A stretch of DNA of 64,000 nucleotides, from the IMG/VR virus record IMGVR_UViG_3300045988_183796; one strand, written 5' to 3'. A program made the position numbers and the translations under genes. This DNA is from a virus. This document shows positions 3,448-61,101 of this stretch, piece after piece. Under the pieces are notes generated by a model. That model ran no database searches. It was not told the DNA's origin and saw only the letters and a program-made list of their open reading frames with translations. Numbering within the stretch: position 1 is the first letter of the stretch; every line of letters begins with the position of its first letter.

Positions 3448-4781
3448 GTAAAGAAGAGCAGAAGCCAAATATTTATCAAATCCCCAAAAACTCGTTTGAT
3501 ACCGGGTATGTGTTGAACGGACAATTCAAAACTCGAAACTTCGTTGAAGGTATCATCCTGGCACTACCGTTCTTGGGAATTTTCATTTATGGATGGCATG
3601 ATTTGGGATGGGATGTACAAAGTACCGTGGCCTATTGCGCAATACTCTGTGCTGCTGCTTTCCTTGGTGCAGCTCATGGTGTTGGCGGCGATAGCTTGTT
3701 TGAGTTTATTCAACGTGTTATCCGTTTCCGGCAAAGTCGCAGAATCTCAAAATACAATCCTCGTATCAAAACCGAACTTGAACCGGAATATCTGATTCAT
3801 GACGGGCGGATGCTCCCGAAAGACAAGCTCAAGCAAATGCTTGGCACTGTAAAGGGAAAAGTTCTTGGTGAAGAGAACGGTCCTATCAGTTCCGACATTA
3901 CAGATGAAGAGCTCAAGGTCTTCTACGATGATGACTATGGGTTCCTAGAAAAACCGGATGCCCTCAAATCTAAAGCAGAACTCCGTGCTGAAGCAAAACA
4001 GCGTGCGAAAGAAGAGAAGGAATACATTAACTCTTTGCCCCGTTCTGAACGCAAGGCTGCCAGAGAAGAAATCAAGCGTAAGCGTGAACAGGAAGAGGCT
4101 GAGAAGAAGGCAAAAGAAGCAGAGCGCGAACGCATTATTAACGAAGCTATTAAGAAGCGTCTGGATAAAGCCGAGCGTGTTAAGACCGCACAGTATTACG
4201 AGAAGTTCATGGACCCCGACAATGAGCAGGAAAATGACAAGCCGGAAGAGAATAACGCTGAACTGAATCCTCAGGCTGTAGAGTTCAAGCCCGTCACTAT
4301 AGGGCCGAGCAATAATGCGGTTCAGGATGATGTCGATATCTTTGACAGTGAAGAAAGCATCGACACCGATGAAGTAGAAGCGAATGTGGAAGCAGATGCG
4401 GATACAGAGCTGTTTGAGGACGGCACTGATACCGATATCCAAGTCCCGCAGATTGATGATGTAGTCTTTGACGATGAAGCGGAAGTACTTGACGTCGATG
4501 AGGACTTGGATGACTTATCGGTTGATATCCAGGATACTCAGTCTGCACAGCCCGCAAAGCAGGGCAGGGGACAAGTCGTGAACAGCGATGACGATGTCAG
4601 CTTGGATGATGTAGACCTTTTCGATGACAGCACGGTCAGCCGCACAGAGGAAAGACCTCAGAACGTCAAAACCTCTGGAAAGACGATGGGCTCGCAAAAG
4701 CAGCCGCAAACCACACAGAACAACAGCGATATTGATTATATGTCCTTGAATGACATTTCTATCTTTGATAGTGAGGAGTGA
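3444..4781 (+). CDS. PrgI/VirB3-like (TcpE-like) conjugal membrane protein with a long acidic/charged low-complexity C-terminal extension
   Basis: ATG 3444 after AAGGGGGAAGAAGC. Two N-terminal TM helices (ILALPFLGIFIYGW..., AYCAILCAAAFLGAAHG). It sits immediately upstream of VirB4, as in Tn916 orf17/orf16. The tail is rich in E/K/D repeats. Confidence 0.6.
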   Translation: MSKEEQKPNIYQIPKNSFDTGYVLNGQFKTRNFVEGIILALPFLGIFIYGWHDLGWDVQSTVAYCAILCAAAFLGAAHGVGGDSLFEFIQRVIRFRQSRRISKYNPRIKTELEPEYLIHDGRMLPKDKLKQMLGTVKGKVLGEENGPISSDITDEELKVFYDDDYGFLEKPDALKSKAELRAEAKQRAKEEKEYINSLPRSERKAAREEIKRKREQEEAEKKAKEAERERIINEAIKKRLDKAERVKTAQYYEKFMDPDNEQENDKPEENNAELNPQAVEFKPVTIGPSNNAVQDDVDIFDSEESIDTDEVEANVEADADTELFEDGTDTDIQVPQIDDVVFDDEAEVLDVDEDLDDLSVDIQDTQSAQPAKQGRGQVVNSDDDVSLDDVDLFDDSTVSRTEERPQNVKTSGKTMGSQKQPQTTQNNSDIDYMSLNDISIFDSEE

Positions 4782-4786
4782 AGCCT

Positions 4787-7447
4787 ATGTTTCGATTCAA
4801 AAATGGCGGAGAAATCCCCCACGGTGTTGTGGAACAGAGTATCGGTACAATCCCGCTGACGAAAAAGGAACGCGATGAAATCGCCAAAGAAGAGCGGCGG
4901 CGGATGAATCAAAAGCTGGAAGCTCAGAATGAGCGCTATCAAATCATTCGAAGCACACAGCGTATCATCCCTATTGAGGATATTTACGGCGGCATTGTTG
5001 TGACAAAGGACCACCGATATATCAAAATCATGGAATTTCGCCCTATCAACTTTGCCTATATGGACGCGGAAACTCAAAACCGTATTATTTCGCTTTTCTA
5101 TCAAACGTTCAAAGCAACTCCCTGCAATATCCAGTTCAAAACCTTTTCTCGTAAAGCTGATGTCGAGAATTCAATCGCGACCGTGACGGACTATTACAAA
5201 GCAGAAAAGAATCCGAGTCGTAAGCGAATGCTGCAGGCATACATCGGATTGCTTCGTAAGACGGCTTTGTCCGTTGGTATTACTCGTCGCTTCTTTGTGG
5301 TCGTAGAATTCCAGCGCACTATTAGTAACGATGGTTCTAAATTTGAAATGGTTGTGGCCGACTTGAATGCCGTTGCGGCAAACGTCCGCTCTCACATGGA
5401 ACAGTGTGGTAATATCTTTATTCCTGCACTTGGTAACCCTGACGGAAACGAGGACGCAGGTCTACACCAGCTTTTTTACCAGCTCTTGAACCGTAGAAAA
5501 AGCGAGACCATCACGTTCAAGCACCACATGGACCCCATTGTGGACCGTTATTTTGAAGCCGAAAAGAATGGCGTTAAGACGTCTTTGCAGGCAACGGAAC
5601 TGATTGCTCCAGACTGGATTGACTTTACGCATCACGATTACATTGTCATTGATGGCAAGTTTTATACTTTCGCTTACATTCCCTCGAACGGGTTCAGCCA
5701 GCGTGTCTATGCGGGCTGGGTGGCTACGTTCGTAAATGCTGGTGAAGGCATTGACGTCGATATGTTCTTTGAGCACATGTCCCGTGAAGCTGTCTTCAAT
5801 AAAATCAGTACACAGCTTCGTCTGAGCCGTGCAAACGCCATGGACAGTCACGATACTGACTCTGACTATCAGGCGCGTATGGAAAAAATTTCGTCCAGTG
5901 AATATATGCTGCGCGGCCTTTCCAGCGGCGAAGAGTTCTATTACCTGTCAATGCTCATCACTATCGTGGCAGATACAAAGAAGGAACTCGATTATAAGTT
6001 CGATGCTTTGAAAAAGCGTATCGAAGGTCAGAGCATGAAGATTCGCCGTGCGGATTTCATGATGGAAGAATGCTTCGATTCCTGCCTGCTTCCTCTTGCG
6101 AAAATCAATAAGGAGCTGGCAAAGAAATCTCATCGCAATCTTCTGACTTCGGGTGTTGCATCCTGCTATCCGTTCATCTCGTTTGAAATGCAGGACCCGG
6201 GCGGCGTTATGGTCGGTACAAACCATGTCAACAACTCTCTGGTCACCATCGATATGTTTGATACCCGTGCTCATGCAAACGCAAACGCCGTTATCCTGGG
6301 CTCTTCCGGCTACGGCAAGACTTTCACCGCACAACTGTTCGCACTACGCTTGTCTGAGATGGACACGCAAGTGTTTATCATCTCTCCTCTGAAAGGTTTG
6401 GAGGACTACGGCGGCGGTTGTAAGGCAGTCAATGGTCAGTTCGTCTCCATGGACCCCTCTTCGGACAACAACATCAACATCATGGACATTCGCGCTCCTG
6501 ACGATGAGGACGCAAAACTGCTGGATGATTATGAGGCTTCTGGCTCCTTCTTGACCAAAAAGATTCACACGATTCTTTCGTTCCTGCACCTGGTTGTTCG
6601 CAATATGACGCAGGAAGAAGAGCAGCTGATTGACGGCTGCCTGTATGCGACATACGCAAAGTTCGGCATTACCCGTGATAACAACTCTATCTACGATAAA
6701 GATGGCAACTATAAGGTGATGCCGCTGTTGGAAGATTTGCAGGAAGAAATGAGAAAAAAACCTGAACTGCATACCGTCTGCAACATCTTGAATCCGCTAA
6801 TTAACGGTTCTATGGCTTGCTTCAATCACCACACCAACGTGGACCTTGACTCCAAGTACATCGTATTTGACTTCAATGGCATGAAAGGCTCTTTGCTTAC
6901 CATGTCTATGTTCGTGGTTCTGGACTTTGTCTGGACGAAAATCAAAGAGGACCGTACACAGCGCAAAGCCGTATTTATTGACGAATGCTGGAAATTGATT
7001 GGTACTGACTCCAACGAGCAGGCAGCTGAAGACGTTGTTGAAATCTTCCGTACGATTCGTGCTTATGGCGGTTCCGCTTTTGCTATGACTCAGGATATTT
7101 CTCAGTTCTACGAATACAAGGGCGGCAAATACGGCAAGGCAATTATTGGTAACGCCGATACCAAAATCATCATGCACCTGATTCCGTCCGAAGCAAAAGC
7201 CCTTCAGGAAGCCATTCAGCTGACCAGCGTTGAGATGGAAGCGGTATCCAGCCTGCCGCGTGGTCAAGGTCTGGTTTGCTCTGCATCCGCAAAACTGTTC
7301 GTTGATTTTGTGGCCGATGACTATGAAGCCAAGGAAATCACAACCGATGCTAAGTCCTTCTACGAACGCCGCAAGGCTCTGGAAAAGAAAAAGCGGGAAG
7401 AAGAAGAGAAGGCGGCGGAAAATACCGTCATCGATGTTGAAATGTGA
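4787..7447 (+). CDS. VirB4/TrsE/TcpF-like T4SS ATPase
   Basis: Walker A ILGSSGYGKTF and Walker B VFIDECW. About 887 aa. RBS GAGGAG about 8 nt upstream of ATG 4787. Overlaps the stop of the upstream gene. Confidence 0.85.
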   Translation: MFRFKNGGEIPHGVVEQSIGTIPLTKKERDEIAKEERRRMNQKLEAQNERYQIIRSTQRIIPIEDIYGGIVVTKDHRYIKIMEFRPINFAYMDAETQNRIISLFYQTFKATPCNIQFKTFSRKADVENSIATVTDYYKAEKNPSRKRMLQAYIGLLRKTALSVGITRRFFVVVEFQRTISNDGSKFEMVVADLNAVAANVRSHMEQCGNIFIPALGNPDGNEDAGLHQLFYQLLNRRKSETITFKHHMDPIVDRYFEAEKNGVKTSLQATELIAPDWIDFTHHDYIVIDGKFYTFAYIPSNGFSQRVYAGWVATFVNAGEGIDVDMFFEHMSREAVFNKISTQLRLSRANAMDSHDTDSDYQARMEKISSSEYMLRGLSSGEEFYYLSMLITIVADTKKELDYKFDALKKRIEGQSMKIRRADFMMEECFDSCLLPLAKINKELAKKSHRNLLTSGVASCYPFISFEMQDPGGVMVGTNHVNNSLVTIDMFDTRAHANANAVILGSSGYGKTFTAQLFALRLSEMDTQVFIISPLKGLEDYGGGCKAVNGQFVSMDPSSDNNINIMDIRAPDDEDAKLLDDYEASGSFLTKKIHTILSFLHLVVRNMTQEEEQLIDGCLYATYAKFGITRDNNSIYDKDGNYKVMPLLEDLQEEMRKKPELHTVCNILNPLINGSMACFNHHTNVDLDSKYIVFDFNGMKGSLLTMSMFVVLDFVWTKIKEDRTQRKAVFIDECWKLIGTDSNEQAAEDVVEIFRTIRAYGGSAFAMTQDISQFYEYKGGKYGKAIIGNADTKIIMHLIPSEAKALQEAIQLTSVEMEAVSSLPRGQGLVCSASAKLFVDFVADDYEAKEITTDAKSFYERRKALEKKKREEEEKAAENTVIDVEM

Positions 7448-13889: not shown

Positions 13890-13990
13890 TCATGAAGCGT
13901 AGCTGCTTGTAAAGAAATGAAAGACGGATGACGGAAGCGTAGCCGCTGCCCGGTAACAGGCTGCCGGTTGCGTAGCTGCCATTCGTCTTT
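13890..13990. repeat. Three GCGTAGC(T/C)GC repeats with about 34-nt spacing
   Basis: gaagcgtagctgc, gaagcgtagccgc and ttgcgtagctgcc are read directly from the sequence. They lie downstream of iscB and upstream of gene 14014. Confidence 0.55.
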
Positions 13991-54706: not shown

Positions 54707-55027
54707 ATGTATACTTGCACCTTAAAATTCGAAGCTACCGCGTTCCGCGAGGATGATGACAACGAGCTCGAAAGCATCTCTGCTTCCATCAGCGTCCCCG
54801 TAAAAGGTGATGATGAAACGGTTGAAGAAACGCTGAGTAATGAGAAGCTGATTGTCCGCACTGTTGTAGCGTTGTACGAAATCGTTAGCTACCTGCGCCC
54901 CAACTGGCTGGACAACGAGGCTACCAGCCTGACGCTGGATATTTCCATCGATGGCAGTGAAGTTCAGTCGCGTGGCGGCCTTGTTACCATGAAACCGGAA
55001 GGCTTTATCTTTAACCTGGATGATTAA
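54707..55027 (+). CDS. Acidic small protein, family A paralog 2
   Basis: RBS AAAGGGGAATACCAAC. About 40% identity to 56697-57017. Confidence 0.55.
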   Translation: MYTCTLKFEATAFREDDDNELESISASISVPVKGDDETVEETLSNEKLIVRTVVALYEIVSYLRPNWLDNEATSLTLDISIDGSEVQSRGGLVTMKPEGFIFNLDD

Positions 55028-56696: not shown

Positions 56697-57017
56697 ATGA
56701 ACACCAGTATCTTGAAACTTGAAGCCAGCGTGATTCGCCCCAAAGATTTTGACGAACTCGACGGTCTTGCTGCTTCCATCAGCTTCCCCGTCGAATACGA
56801 TGATGAGGCAATCGGTGAGGCTCTGGCCGACCAGGACCTGATGGCCTATGTCGTCGGTGAGCTGCATGACCTCGTTGTCCGTATGCGCCCCGAATGGCAG
56901 GATAACGAAGATACCAGCCTGACTATCAAGGCATTCCTGGACGAAGCCGAGTGCCAGACGCTCAAGGGCCTTGTCGCAATGAAAGAGGACAGCTACACCT
57001 TCGTCATTGAGGGCTAA
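56697..57017 (+). CDS. Acidic small protein, family A paralog 3
   Basis: RBS AAAAGGAGATATTCCCA. Aligns with 54707-55027. Confidence 0.55.
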   Translation: MNTSILKLEASVIRPKDFDELDGLAASISFPVEYDDEAIGEALADQDLMAYVVGELHDLVVRMRPEWQDNEDTSLTIKAFLDEAECQTLKGLVAMKEDSYTFVIEG

Positions 57018-57350
57018 TAGCTAAAAGAACAAGTGAAAACCCTGCTCGCAGTAAAATGCGGGCGGGGTCTTTTTTTGTTTGACAAGGTGTGCGAGATGGC
57101 TATGATGATTATTGTATCAAAGATACCACTTACCTTCATTTTTAACATTCCGCTTTTGCAAGGACAGCCTCATTCCGAGGTTGTCCTTTTTCTTTTGCGT
57201 AACTCTCCACGGAAACACTTGTCCCCGTGTTTAACATAAATCCGCAAGCTGCTCTAAATTTTGGAACAGCTTAGTCAATTCAAATCGTACGAAAGTACGA
57301 AAACACTACGCAAACATTCTGCGTAGACTGTAAAAAAAGGAGTAATAATT

Positions 57351-57848
57351 ATGAAGTTCGAAAATCTTTACATCCGTGCCACCCGTCATGGCAGCCAGGA
57401 ACCCACCGAAATCAACCTTGCGGATGCCCTGAAGCTTCTCGGCATCCTTGACGCAGCCAACATAGCTCACTTTGACCTTGTGGTCAAGGACGAGAACGGC
57501 TGCGAAATCGCCGCCCAGGTCGATGGCGAAGGCGTCCTTTCGGACGGAATCAACATCGAAGGCGTGAACGAAGCTGGTGAACCTACCGGTTTTGCCCACG
57601 TCGCTCTCCCCAGTGAGGATTGCCCTCACATTGTCACCGAAATCCTGTGAGGCGACGGTGACACCGAAGACCTTGACCATCCGGTTCTCGTGCGCGTCCC
57701 TGACTGCGTGCGTGCCGAAGGGGACAAGAGTCTCCGCAAGGTGTACTTCGACAAGGAAGTTGCGAGTGCAACTGGCTTCAACACGGAGGAAGACCAGTCC
57801 AAGCTCAACGCATCCACCGTGGATGAGTACGCCCTCATGAAGAAGTGA
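57351..57848 (+). pseudogene. Acidic protein ORF interrupted by an in-frame TGA at 57648-57650 (recoding/readthrough candidate or nonsense pseudogene)
   Basis: RBS AAAAAAGGAGTAATAATT before ATG 57351. After the TGA the same frame stays open for 65 more codons (GDGDTEDLDHPVLVRVPDCVRAEGDKSLRKVYFDKEVASATGFNTEEDQSKLNASTVDEYALMKK), with similar acidic composition and codon usage. Confidence 0.45.
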
Positions 57849-57959
57849 TTCTTCATTTTTTCCAAACGTTGCCTTTAAGCTTTGTTTCTAGCTGCAGTAT
57901 GAATCAAGGTTAAAATGGCCTGGCTTGAAAGTCGTTCACCTTTTGGTGAGCGGCTTTTT

Positions 57960-58030
57960 CTTTTTGCTCATTTGCGTAGCTGCGCTTCTTTGTTGTTGGA
58001 ACCGTAGGTGCCAGGATGCGTAGCTGCCAG
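57960..58030. repeat. CGTAG-core repeat cluster (GCGTAGCTGC x2 and ACCGTAGGTGCC)
   Basis: ttgcgtagctgcg, aaccgtaggtgcc and atgcgtagctgcc. Same motif family as the clusters flanking the IscB locus. Confidence 0.55.
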
Positions 58031-58036
58031 TATGAC

Positions 58037-58064
58037 TTGACCTGATGTGCGAATCTTATACAAT
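58037..58064 (+). promoter_or_regulatory. Regulon promoter driving a short transcript
   Basis: TTGACC-tgatGTGCGAATctta-TACAAT. A second regulon promoter lies 90 nt downstream. Confidence 0.5.
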
Positions 58065-58142
58065 CAGATTTGTACGAGAGATACTATTCACACAATAGGA
58101 TTCACACGAAGCTGCTCGGGAGCCGTATGGCTGCTGGGTGGC

Positions 58143-58170
58143 TTTTTCTTTTGTGCGAGTTGCGTACAAT
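58143..58170 (+). promoter_or_regulatory. Regulon promoter (weak -35) for the lipoprotein / macro / MazG operon
   Basis: ttttGTGCGAGTtgcg-TACAAT. Confidence 0.45.
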
Positions 58171-58194
58171 ATAAATCAAACGGAGGAAATTACC

Positions 58195-58602
58195 ATGAAA
58201 AAATTTATTGAAACTGCTTTGGCATTATGCTGCCTGGCTATGCCTTTGGCTGGCTGTGAGGACGCAATCAGCACTGTGACAAGTACTACGATGTCTGAAC
58301 TCGAAGATATCCCGGGTCAGATATTGTCTACACCAGAAAGTGCTGAGACAGTACCGGAATACAATTACATTCATTTTCGCTACGACAACATTTGGACCGT
58401 ATCCGCTCTCGTAAGCTACGAAATCGTGGACAACGGGCAAAACATCAAATTTGAAATCAGTGATAGCCGTTACCGAGACAAGGTTTTCTATACCAGCATG
58501 TCGAATGTAGAGCTCGTATACCGAGACAATAACGTTGATTATGGCACAGACTATGCTATTTATCCAGGGAATGCTTCGAAATTTGGAAAGGGGAGTAAGT
58601 GA
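58195..58602 (+). CDS. Lipoprotein
   Basis: Signal peptide plus lipobox LAMPLAGCE. RBS AACGGAGGAAATTACC. Confidence 0.55.
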   Translation: MKKFIETALALCCLAMPLAGCEDAISTVTSTTMSELEDIPGQILSTPESAETVPEYNYIHFRYDNIWTVSALVSYEIVDNGQNIKFEISDSRYRDKVFYTSMSNVELVYRDNNVDYGTDYAIYPGNASKFGKGSK

Positions 58603-58603
58603 G

Positions 58604-59080
58604 ATGAGCGTGAAATTCATTGACGGCGATATCCTTTCCAAACGTTCTGAAGACGAACTGACCTACATCTGCCAGCAGGTAAATTGCCGTGGCGTGATGG
58701 GAGCCGGGCTCGCTCTGCAAATCCGAAACAAGTGGCCGGTCGTGTATCGGCGTTATCTGGGGCTCTGCTACGGCAGCGACGGAAACAAGCTCGGAATGTA
58801 TCAGGAGGTTTTGGTTGGACCGAAGCTGTATATTGTGAATTTGTTCGGTCAGGATGGCTATGGTCGGAGCGAAAGACAGACGAATTACGCTGCACTCGCA
58901 GCTGCGCTGTTCTCGTTTTTTAAGGACTGTGCCCAAAAGAATCGGGACGCAACCATCCGGCTGCCATATGGTTTAGGCTGCGGCCTTGCTGGGGGTGACT
59001 GGAACATGGTTCTCACCATCATCAGCGATGCGGCTAAAGCCTCAAACCTGAATGTCGAGATTTGGAAACTTCAGAAATAA
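58604..59080 (+). CDS. Macro-domain protein (ADP-ribose binding/hydrolase)
   Basis: ICQQVNCRGVMGAGLALQI, NLFGQDGYG and LPYGLGCGLAGGDW are macro-domain signatures. RBS AAAGGGGAGTAAGTGAG. Confidence 0.75.
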   Translation: MSVKFIDGDILSKRSEDELTYICQQVNCRGVMGAGLALQIRNKWPVVYRRYLGLCYGSDGNKLGMYQEVLVGPKLYIVNLFGQDGYGRSERQTNYAALAAALFSFFKDCAQKNRDATIRLPYGLGCGLAGGDWNMVLTIISDAAKASNLNVEIWKLQK

Positions 59081-60093: not shown

Positions 60094-61101
60094 GTGACCA
60101 ATGTAGAATTGAAAGCAATTTTCCAACGCGAAGAATACGATTTTTTACGTACCAACAAACATCTGGGAGATAACATCCTGTTTTTGACCGTCGGCGGCAG
60201 CCATGCTTACGGAACCAACGTTGAAGGCTCTGACATCGATATCCGTGGCGTGGCAGGCTCGCCTGAAATTTTGGGATTCAATCATTTTGAGCAGGCAATC
60301 GATAACCAAACGGATACCGTCATCTACGCGGTCAACAAATTCGTCAGTTTGCTTGTGCAGGGCAACCCCAACATTATCGAACTTCTTGGCAATGACCCGG
60401 AGTTGTACGTTAATATGACACCGGAAGGCCAAATGCTGCTTGACAATCGGACACTGTTCTTGACGCGGCGTATTGCCTACAGCTACGGCGGCTTTGCAAA
60501 CGACCAGCTCAGACGCCTGCAGATGGGCCTTCTTCGGAATGGGACCTCGCCGGAAGCATTTAAGAACAAATTTGAGAAGAGGAGCCTGGAACGGTCGATT
60601 GCCGGTTGGGGTAAGGATGACATTTTTGAAATCTCCATCAGCGAAGATGCGGATGAAGAAGGCAAACATCCGCTCCTGATTTCCGGCAATTTGAACGATT
60701 ATCCGGTCATCTCTCTCAAGTCCCTGCTAAAGAGTCTGACTACGACCATCGACCAGTATGAGCAGCCGCAGCATCCGAAAGCACAAAAAGATGCTGCCCA
60801 CATCAACAAACACGCGATGCACATTGTGCGGTTGTACTACACGGCGTTCGATATTCTGGAAAAAGGCGAGATTATCACTCACCGAGACAAGGAACGCGAG
60901 GAATTGTTGGCGATTCGCAACGGCAAGTACCTGCGTGAAGACGGGTCGTACGCACCCGAATTCTTTGAGTTTGTTGATGCGCTTGAAAAGAGATTTCAGG
61001 ATGACGTGAGGAAAACCTCTCTTCCTGCTAAGCCTGACTTTGGAAAAATTGAGGAGCTTCTGGTGGAAATCAACAAGTCATATTTGCGGCGTATCGTGTA
61101 A
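60094..61101 (+). CDS. Nucleotidyltransferase-domain protein (pol-beta superfamily)
   Basis: LFLTVGGSHAYGTNVEGSDIDIRGV matches the GS...D.D nucleotidyltransferase motif. Confidence 0.6.
   Translation: MTNVELKAIFQREEYDFLRTNKHLGDNILFLTVGGSHAYGTNVEGSDIDIRGVAGSPEILGFNHFEQAIDNQTDTVIYAVNKFVSLLVQGNPNIIELLGNDPELYVNMTPEGQMLLDNRTLFLTRRIAYSYGGFANDQLRRLQMGLLRNGTSPEAFKNKFEKRSLERSIAGWGKDDIFEISISEDADEEGKHPLLISGNLNDYPVISLKSLLKSLTTTIDQYEQPQHPKAQKDAAHINKHAMHIVRLYYTAFDILEKGEIITHRDKEREELLAIRNGKYLREDGSYAPEFFEFVDALEKRFQDDVRKTSLPAKPDFGKIEELLVEINKSYLRRIV

Follow-up and report, generated by a model that had tools for sequence, protein, structure and literature searches.

The locus and its genetic setting

In the 64,000-nucleotide stretch of DNA analysed here (the window), an ATG at 57351 on the plus strand opens a frame of 99 sense codons that ends at a TGA (57648-57650), and past this stop the same frame continues through another 65 sense codons to a second TGA at 57846-57848. 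This arrangement, described in an earlier note made from the sequence alone, is borne out, as are the other properties that the note had ascribed to it: both parts are acidic and rich in G and C at third codon positions (pI 4.3 and GC3 0.64 for the N-terminal part, pI 4.5 and GC3 0.74 for the tail), the competing +2 frame is a low-complexity one rich in S, T, P and R, and the tail has no plausible start of its own. The only in-frame start codon of the tail is a GTG at 57690, which lacks a Shine-Dalgarno sequence and falls inside a segment that is deleted in other haplotypes, and separate translation of the tail was rejected on these grounds.

The 99-codon frame is preceded by a Shine-Dalgarno sequence, GGAG (57339-57342, plus strand), 8 nt ahead of the ATG, and AGGAG is kept in homologous loci. 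Ahead of the gene's leader, a consensus scan finds a site at 57079-57106 on the same strand (TTGACA-16-TATGAT, 11/12) that may act as a promoter. Beyond the tail, a terminator scan places an intrinsic terminator at 57927-57958 (plus strand), where a transcript of the gene and its tail would end; this terminator is nearly invariant among haplotypes (pi 0.007), and a compensatory change in one of them (L022) keeps its pairing. Nowhere is the locus more variable than in the spacer around it (57849-57958; pi 0.13), and a further hairpin past the tail, at about 57880-57915, shows a compensatory change between haplotypes (GTTTC..GAATC versus GCTTC..GAAGC). The leader has structure of its own. A terminator-like hairpin with a T-run (57160-57188) follows the strong promoter-like site, and two small hairpins (57285-57300 and 57306-57326) keep their pairing in other loci by compensatory changes; in two related loci (L008 and L018) the small hairpins are absent and a terminator-like hairpin stands right before the ribosome-binding site. 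The leader (57079-57330) could be an attenuator or a regulatory leader. Downstream, an 11-mer, TGCGTAGCTGC, occurs at 57973-57983 and 58017-58027, just upstream of the next gene's promoter-like site (58037-58064), and again at 13896-13906 and 13969-13979; these four matches compare with 1.0 expected, four being reached by 6 of 100 shuffles, and the 11-mer could, tentatively, be an operator-like repeat.

The window also encodes a VirD4/TraG-type coupling protein (40-1611), a VirB4/TraG-type ATPase (4778-7447), and helicase, PLD nuclease, VWA and SPFH proteins. The conjugative 'Hodor' megaplasmids of human-gut Bacillota measure 211-389 kb, have a GC content of 47.1% in group G1 and carry type I-C CRISPR-Cas systems (PMC12934698). 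The element described here resembles them in its occurrence in gut metagenomes, in its contigs of 200-296 kb, in the 47.0% GC of the window, in its VirD4- and VirB4-type T4SS genes and in the type I-C cas genes by the locus, which adjoin it on related contigs of up to 296 kb, and it fits a Hodor-like megaplasmid, a likeness by description only and with a paper that does not discuss the 99-aa gene (PMC12934698). The only hint of a host is one NCBI protein record entered under Oscillospiraceae bacterium SCCA1. In IMG/VR, a contig of 68 kb from the same element (L027, IMGVR_UViG_3300029220_000234) is listed as a viral genome but is probably a misclassified plasmid fragment; the one phage-like match in the window is that of the VirB4-like ATPase, which weakly resembles a terminase. 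In the most GC-rich kilobase of the window (0.56), long ORFs lie on both strands at 1624-2964 (446 aa on the minus and 435 aa on the plus strand).

Near the gene, among neighbours at 58535-59080 and 60094-61101, lies a DarG-like macrodomain protein (PADLOC E=8.4e-15), and synteny with related loci also identifies an RlaP-type nucleotidyltransferase as a neighbour; on related contigs, type I-C cas5, cas8c and cas7 and a UvrD-like helicase follow. These DarG-like, RlaP-type and cas neighbours place the gene in an accessory island of defence or anti-defence character. Just upstream of the gene, a 106-aa acidic ORF (56697-57017) has a 43%-identical paralog at 54707-55012, and related loci carry two or three diverged copies (42-51% identity) together with a distant 118-aa relative (in L001, 2902-3222, 4951-5271 and 2283-2639). 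These acidic ORFs are a small expanding protein family, unrelated to the 99-aa gene.

Homologs and the alleles at codon 100

An open frame past a stop is by itself weak evidence, because 8.5% of shuffles of the 195-nt tail stay open and at least 40 open codons follow the stop in 18 of 58 window genes. The feature is nevertheless real, since the tail can be aligned from end to end with the C-terminal portion of relatives that have 166 aa in one piece. When the joined sequence was compared with a large protein collection, eight clusters were recovered, of which three are full-length (165-166 aa) and five end at residue 99, the latter with 89-97% identity to the window. At codon 100, two of the full-length clusters (P0002 and P0003) have Cys and the third (P0001) has Trp. 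The Trp is an artefact: the underlying DNA (L007, 191-688) has TGA at this codon, and the gene caller had applied code 4 to a 1.5-kb contig. A spurious Trp protein has in this way been placed in a public collection, and records of this type can mimic full-length homologs with a sense codon.

At the DNA level, 54 related loci and the window (55 loci) reduce to 24 distinct haplotypes of the gene region, 18 with TGA and 6 with TGC. The TGC haplotypes fall into two clusters, one about 83% identical and set in the same gene neighbourhood, the other about 65% identical and effectively an outgroup. TGC stands at the aligned codon in L008, L045-L054 and L009/L010, and TGA in the window and every other haplotype, in a context that is near-identical but for one base (CTG TGC GGC GAC versus CTG TGA GGC GAC). 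The haplotype alignment thus points to one C->A change that turned TGC (Cys100) into the premature stop at 57648-57650 (plus strand). The Cys allele is much rarer than the TGA allele, with 15 contigs for P0009 and 12 for P0018 against 382, 154 and 83 for P0033, P0034 and P0047. Since the TGA recurs in hundreds of independent assemblies, with clusters of identical 99-aa proteins on hundreds of contigs, it is not a sequencing error, and this possibility, which the earlier note had listed, can be set aside. No homologs were found that end naturally at this position ahead of an independent downstream gene; they either are full-length or carry the same TGA.

The family was widened by an exhaustive profile search and a second database search, giving an alignment of 20 members that includes abundant relatives of 293 aa. 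Of the 20, 18 have Ala at position 100, and Cys is confined to the two closest clusters. The residues around it are strongly conserved: L86, P87, I94 and T96 before the site and G101, D102, T105, E106, T107, D108, R121, G124, D125, S127 and R129 after it are invariant or nearly so, and the stop therefore falls within the conserved core. Neither half, nor the joined protein, nor a full-length relative had a significant match in Pfam, PHROGs or PADLOC; blastn against phage and plasmid collections gave no match, and a scan of GTDB genomes found no relatives. Two AlphaFold2 runs were poor (pLDDT 40 with 8 sequences and 52 with 20), and a Foldseek search of the PDB gave a meaningless best E-value of 0.96. 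Residues 1-50 are the one part modelled with moderate confidence, which may be taken as the only structural hint as to why the cut is tolerated.

The tail in TGA carriers

The stretch from 57651 to 57848 (plus strand) is homologous to residues 101-166 of P0002 and P0003, and would represent the ancestral C-terminal 65 codons with their old stop, now an untranslated relic in a 3' UTR. Its state differs among TGA carriers. It is intact, with 65-66 codons, in the window and in L007, L018, L024, L025, L027 and L034-37. In L001-6, L011-17, L026 and L032 it has lost 63 nt in frame, directly after TGA GGC NAC GNT; the missing segment corresponds to 57660-57722 (plus strand) of the window, which keeps it, and carries the short repeats GGTGAC/GGGGAC on its flanks. 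Among the residues encoded by this segment are T105 and E106, invariant in the family, and R121 and G124, which are nearly so. In L019-23, a lineage found in several independent samples, the 63-nt deletion is joined by a +1 insertion of a G, and the shifted frame stops after 14 codons.

Such disruptive indels (the 63-nt deletion and the +1 insertion) are confined to the tail. None of the 55 loci has a stop or a frameshift in the N-terminal part, though one, L025 (1134-1598, a TGA haplotype), has an in-frame deletion of 30 nt there, which removes the 10 residues LSDGINIEGV between EGV...EGV repeats and leaves an 89-aa product. Of the 18 TGA haplotypes, 16 keep the relic in an open frame, and the two larger indels each have a length divisible by three, though indels are too few for a test of this. 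One relic codon, 144 (57780-57782), has four alleles among TGA haplotypes (AAC, AGC, TAC and ACC), which vary in the first and second positions; either a mutational hotspot or recombination between divergent relics may account for them.

Selection before and after the stop

Among the 18 TGA haplotypes, segregating sites in the N-terminal part are distributed over first, second and third codon positions as 18, 11 and 38 (p=1.5e-4 against uniform), as is usual of coding sequence, whereas in the tail they are distributed as 10, 17 and 11 (p=0.32), a difference with a Fisher p of 0.008 that has to be read with one main caveat, namely that the lineages are visibly mosaic at this locus, so that the sites counted cannot be treated as independent events. 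Averaged over pairs of the 16 TGA haplotypes that are in frame, dN/dS is 0.14 for the N-terminal part (bootstrap CI 0.09-0.23) and 1.12 for the tail (0.45-5.15). In the Cys relatives the same tail behaves differently: its dN/dS between L008 and L009 is 0.26 (0.10-0.54), and the tail protein is the same in all five haplotypes of Cys cluster 1. Taken together, these figures indicate that constraint acts on the tail when codon 100 is Cys and is lacking when it is TGA. The 99-codon part is constrained in both cases.

The persistence of an open frame in most relics might seem to contradict this. Stop-creating changes make up 3.1% of the possible substitutions in the tail, and 28-38 neutral changes would leave the frame open with a probability of 0.3-0.4, so that the open frame is uninformative. 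The diversity of the relic (pi 0.06-0.07) is likewise lower than that of the adjacent non-coding spacer (0.13), but it falls inside the range seen at third positions along the N-terminal part (0.05-0.22), and diversity across the locus is too uneven for this to be read as a sign of constraint, and that reading was rejected.

Two alternative explanations of the stop turn on these contrasts. The first is leaky or programmed readthrough, in which a minority of ribosomes would insert an amino acid such as Trp at the UGA and yield a useful minor isoform of 165 aa, as for the A1 protein of Qbeta. UGA is in general the leakiest of the bacterial stops; 16 TGA haplotypes, the window among them, have an open in-frame tail, the 63-nt deletion does not shift the frame, and relic diversity is somewhat below that of the spacer. 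Against this explanation, the tail has a dN/dS of 1.12 and lacks third-position bias, the deletion discards the invariant T105 and E106, the tail is frameshifted in L019-23 in several independent samples, neither folding nor the bSECIS scans described below reveal a stimulatory structure after the stop, and the open frame is expected by chance with P 0.3-0.4. Programmed readthrough, which the earlier note had offered as an option, is thus contradicted by a tail that evolves neutrally, has lost invariant residues in several lineages and is frameshifted in one, and we regard it as improbable. On the computational evidence, functional readthrough is contradicted, and trace leakage of no biological relevance may occur.

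The second, slightly less probable again, is that the whole gene is a pseudogene, its N-terminal ORF being as dead as the tail and its coding-like polymorphism either older than the mutation or imported by recombination. Such a reading would accommodate the loss of half of the conserved core at the stop, the 30-nt deletion in L025 and the high dN/dS of the N-terminal part in some close pairs (1.48 for L007-L019 and 0.46 for L018-L019, from tiny counts). It conflicts with the difference between the two parts in the same haplotypes over the same time span (0.14 versus 1.12, with bootstrap intervals that do not overlap), with the lack of any frameshift or stop in the N-terminal part of the 55 loci, with the retention of the promoter-like site, the Shine-Dalgarno sequence and the terminator, and with the status of the TGA form as the majority allele on hundreds of contigs. 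The term pseudogene, as used in the earlier note, therefore suits the tail and not the N-terminal product, which is still under selection.

Selenocysteine and code reassignment

A Cys/Sec pair is the standard signature of bacterial selenoprotein genes (PMC13188914), and the TGA at codon 100 aligns exactly with TGC in the two closest full-length clusters, as the comparison of homologs suggested in the earlier note brings out. The locus could accordingly be read as encoding a selenoprotein of 165 aa in which Sec takes the place of the homologs' Cys. TGA homologs occur in many samples, and the likely hosts are Clostridia. Some members of this class use Sec. In the published model, the bSECIS element lies 16-37 nt after the UGA, has an apical loop of 3-9 nt with a G in its first two positions and an upper stem of at least 4 bp, and folds with an MFE of at most -7.5 kcal/mol (PMC13188914). 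The scan used here asked for an upper stem of 4 bp or more and tolerated bulges beneath it; it replaced an over-strict version that had required a contiguous stem. As a positive control, the E. coli fdhF element was detected (-12.6 kcal/mol, 18-nt spacing).

The SECIS-like hairpin that the earlier note had proposed to look for did not appear: the scan returned 0 candidates after the TGA in 9 TGA haplotypes (the window and 8 others), even though it detected fdhF and is permissive enough to report one in 48% of shuffled versions of the 72 nt scanned and after 11% of TGA triplets drawn at random from the window. Folding of the region gives MFE z-scores of -0.6 to +0.6 in undeleted variants. A hairpin in the tail of other haplotypes, ACGACA-GUGA-UGUCGU, was considered as a displaced SECIS and rejected; the Cys relatives have it as well, and in undeleted variants its distance from the TGA is about 94 nt. 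The window contains no tRNA genes, whether for tRNA-Sec or for a suppressor, and Rfam gave nothing for 56900-58300 beyond chance matches below threshold.

In the deletion variants, the 63 nt lost are nt +13 to +75 after the TGA, the very place that a bSECIS would need to occupy. Because residue 100 is Ala in 18 of the 20 family members, it is not a conserved redox Cys. The tail is neutral, it is frameshifted in one lineage, and the window lacks a tRNA-Sec. Selenocysteine insertion is contradicted by three defining features, and we consider it very improbable. Least probable of all is reassignment of the code, in which the element or its host would read TGA as Trp or Gly (code 4 or 25). It is excluded by stop-codon usage: TGA terminates 24 of the 58 confident genes of the window, and the open stretch that follows has a median of 12 codons. 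Long neighbouring genes are intact under the standard code, the window carries no suppressor tRNA, and the W that a public gene caller gave at codon 100 of P0001 is an artefact that arose when code 4 was chosen for a contig of 1.5 kb.

A probable truncated, still-selected allele and its relic

We therefore favour, with a probability of roughly 0.8, the interpretation that a TGC->TGA nonsense allele encodes a 99-aa protein that is still under selection, is followed by a neutral 3' relic, and has become the majority allele in a population of gut megaplasmid-like elements. The ancestral gene would have been a one-piece gene of about 166 codons with TGC (Cys) at codon 100, in which a single C->A change created the TGA. 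As TGA is a normal stop in this element, translation would end there, presumably with efficient termination in vivo, and release an acidic protein of 99 residues. The selection signature and the protein clusters suggest that 57351-57650 (plus strand) is a functional CDS, a truncated allele of the 166-aa family, and that selection still maintains its product. The 195 nt of old C-terminal coding sequence would still be transcribed as part of the 3' UTR, ahead of the terminator (57927-57958), where the unread relic would gain substitutions irrespective of codon position and, in sister lineages, the 63-nt deletion and the +1 frameshift. The window would then represent a variant whose relic is still undeleted and open, and the truncated allele would be the majority form in conjugative megaplasmid-like elements of about 270-300 kb in gut Bacillota. 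The nonsense mutation that the earlier note had included among its options is thus supported, but as a widespread majority allele and not as a private or very recent change.

Some observations count against this interpretation. It is odd that purifying selection still acts on a protein cut midway through its conserved core and that this form is the majority allele, and the relic is open in 16 of 18 TGA haplotypes with a pi below that of the spacer. A variant, which we think unlikely though worth keeping in view, is that the truncation is itself adaptive, the loss of the conserved C-terminal G-D-x-x-T-E motif module having been selected in this population of megaplasmids and the TGA allele spread over different backgrounds by recombination, or else that haplotypes with intact tails leak traces of the full-length protein. 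If the truncation were adaptive, it might bring, for example, escape from recognition by a host defence or a changed activity; if the UGA leaks in haplotypes with intact tails, such as the window, the locus would be a gene in transition from two isoforms to one.

Events of this sort, in which a premature stop shortens a gene and leaves a remnant to decay, are common. Among large conjugative elements of the gut, the alleles described here amount to a widespread polymorphism in a protein family that is so far uncharacterised. The locus also provides a cautionary case of a false-positive Cys/Sec pair, as a TGA aligned with Cys and recurring across metagenomes passes the usual first filters for selenoproteins and fails once the wider family, the SECIS model and selection downstream of the stop are examined.

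Comparison with known systems

The locus shares with selenoprotein genes an in-frame TGA aligned with the Cys of close homologs, and TGA homologs in many samples, but differs from them in having no bSECIS, a position that is mostly Ala in the family, downstream coding sequence without constraint and a putative SECIS region that is deleted in many carriers (PMC13188914). Like the gene for Qbeta A1, it has a UGA stop followed by an in-frame extension without its own start codon; the extension of A1 is maintained, whereas the one described here is neutral, disrupted in sister lineages and a remnant of a one-piece protein. Its closest counterparts are nonsense alleles of accessory genes of mobile elements, with which it has in common an ancestral sense codon one substitution away from a stop, relaxed constraint, deletions and a frameshift only past the stop, and an upstream ORF that keeps its expression signals. 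It differs from such alleles in that the truncated form is dominant instead of rare or degenerate, and in that its N-terminal product is as strongly constrained as in the full-length relatives, despite a cut in the conserved core.
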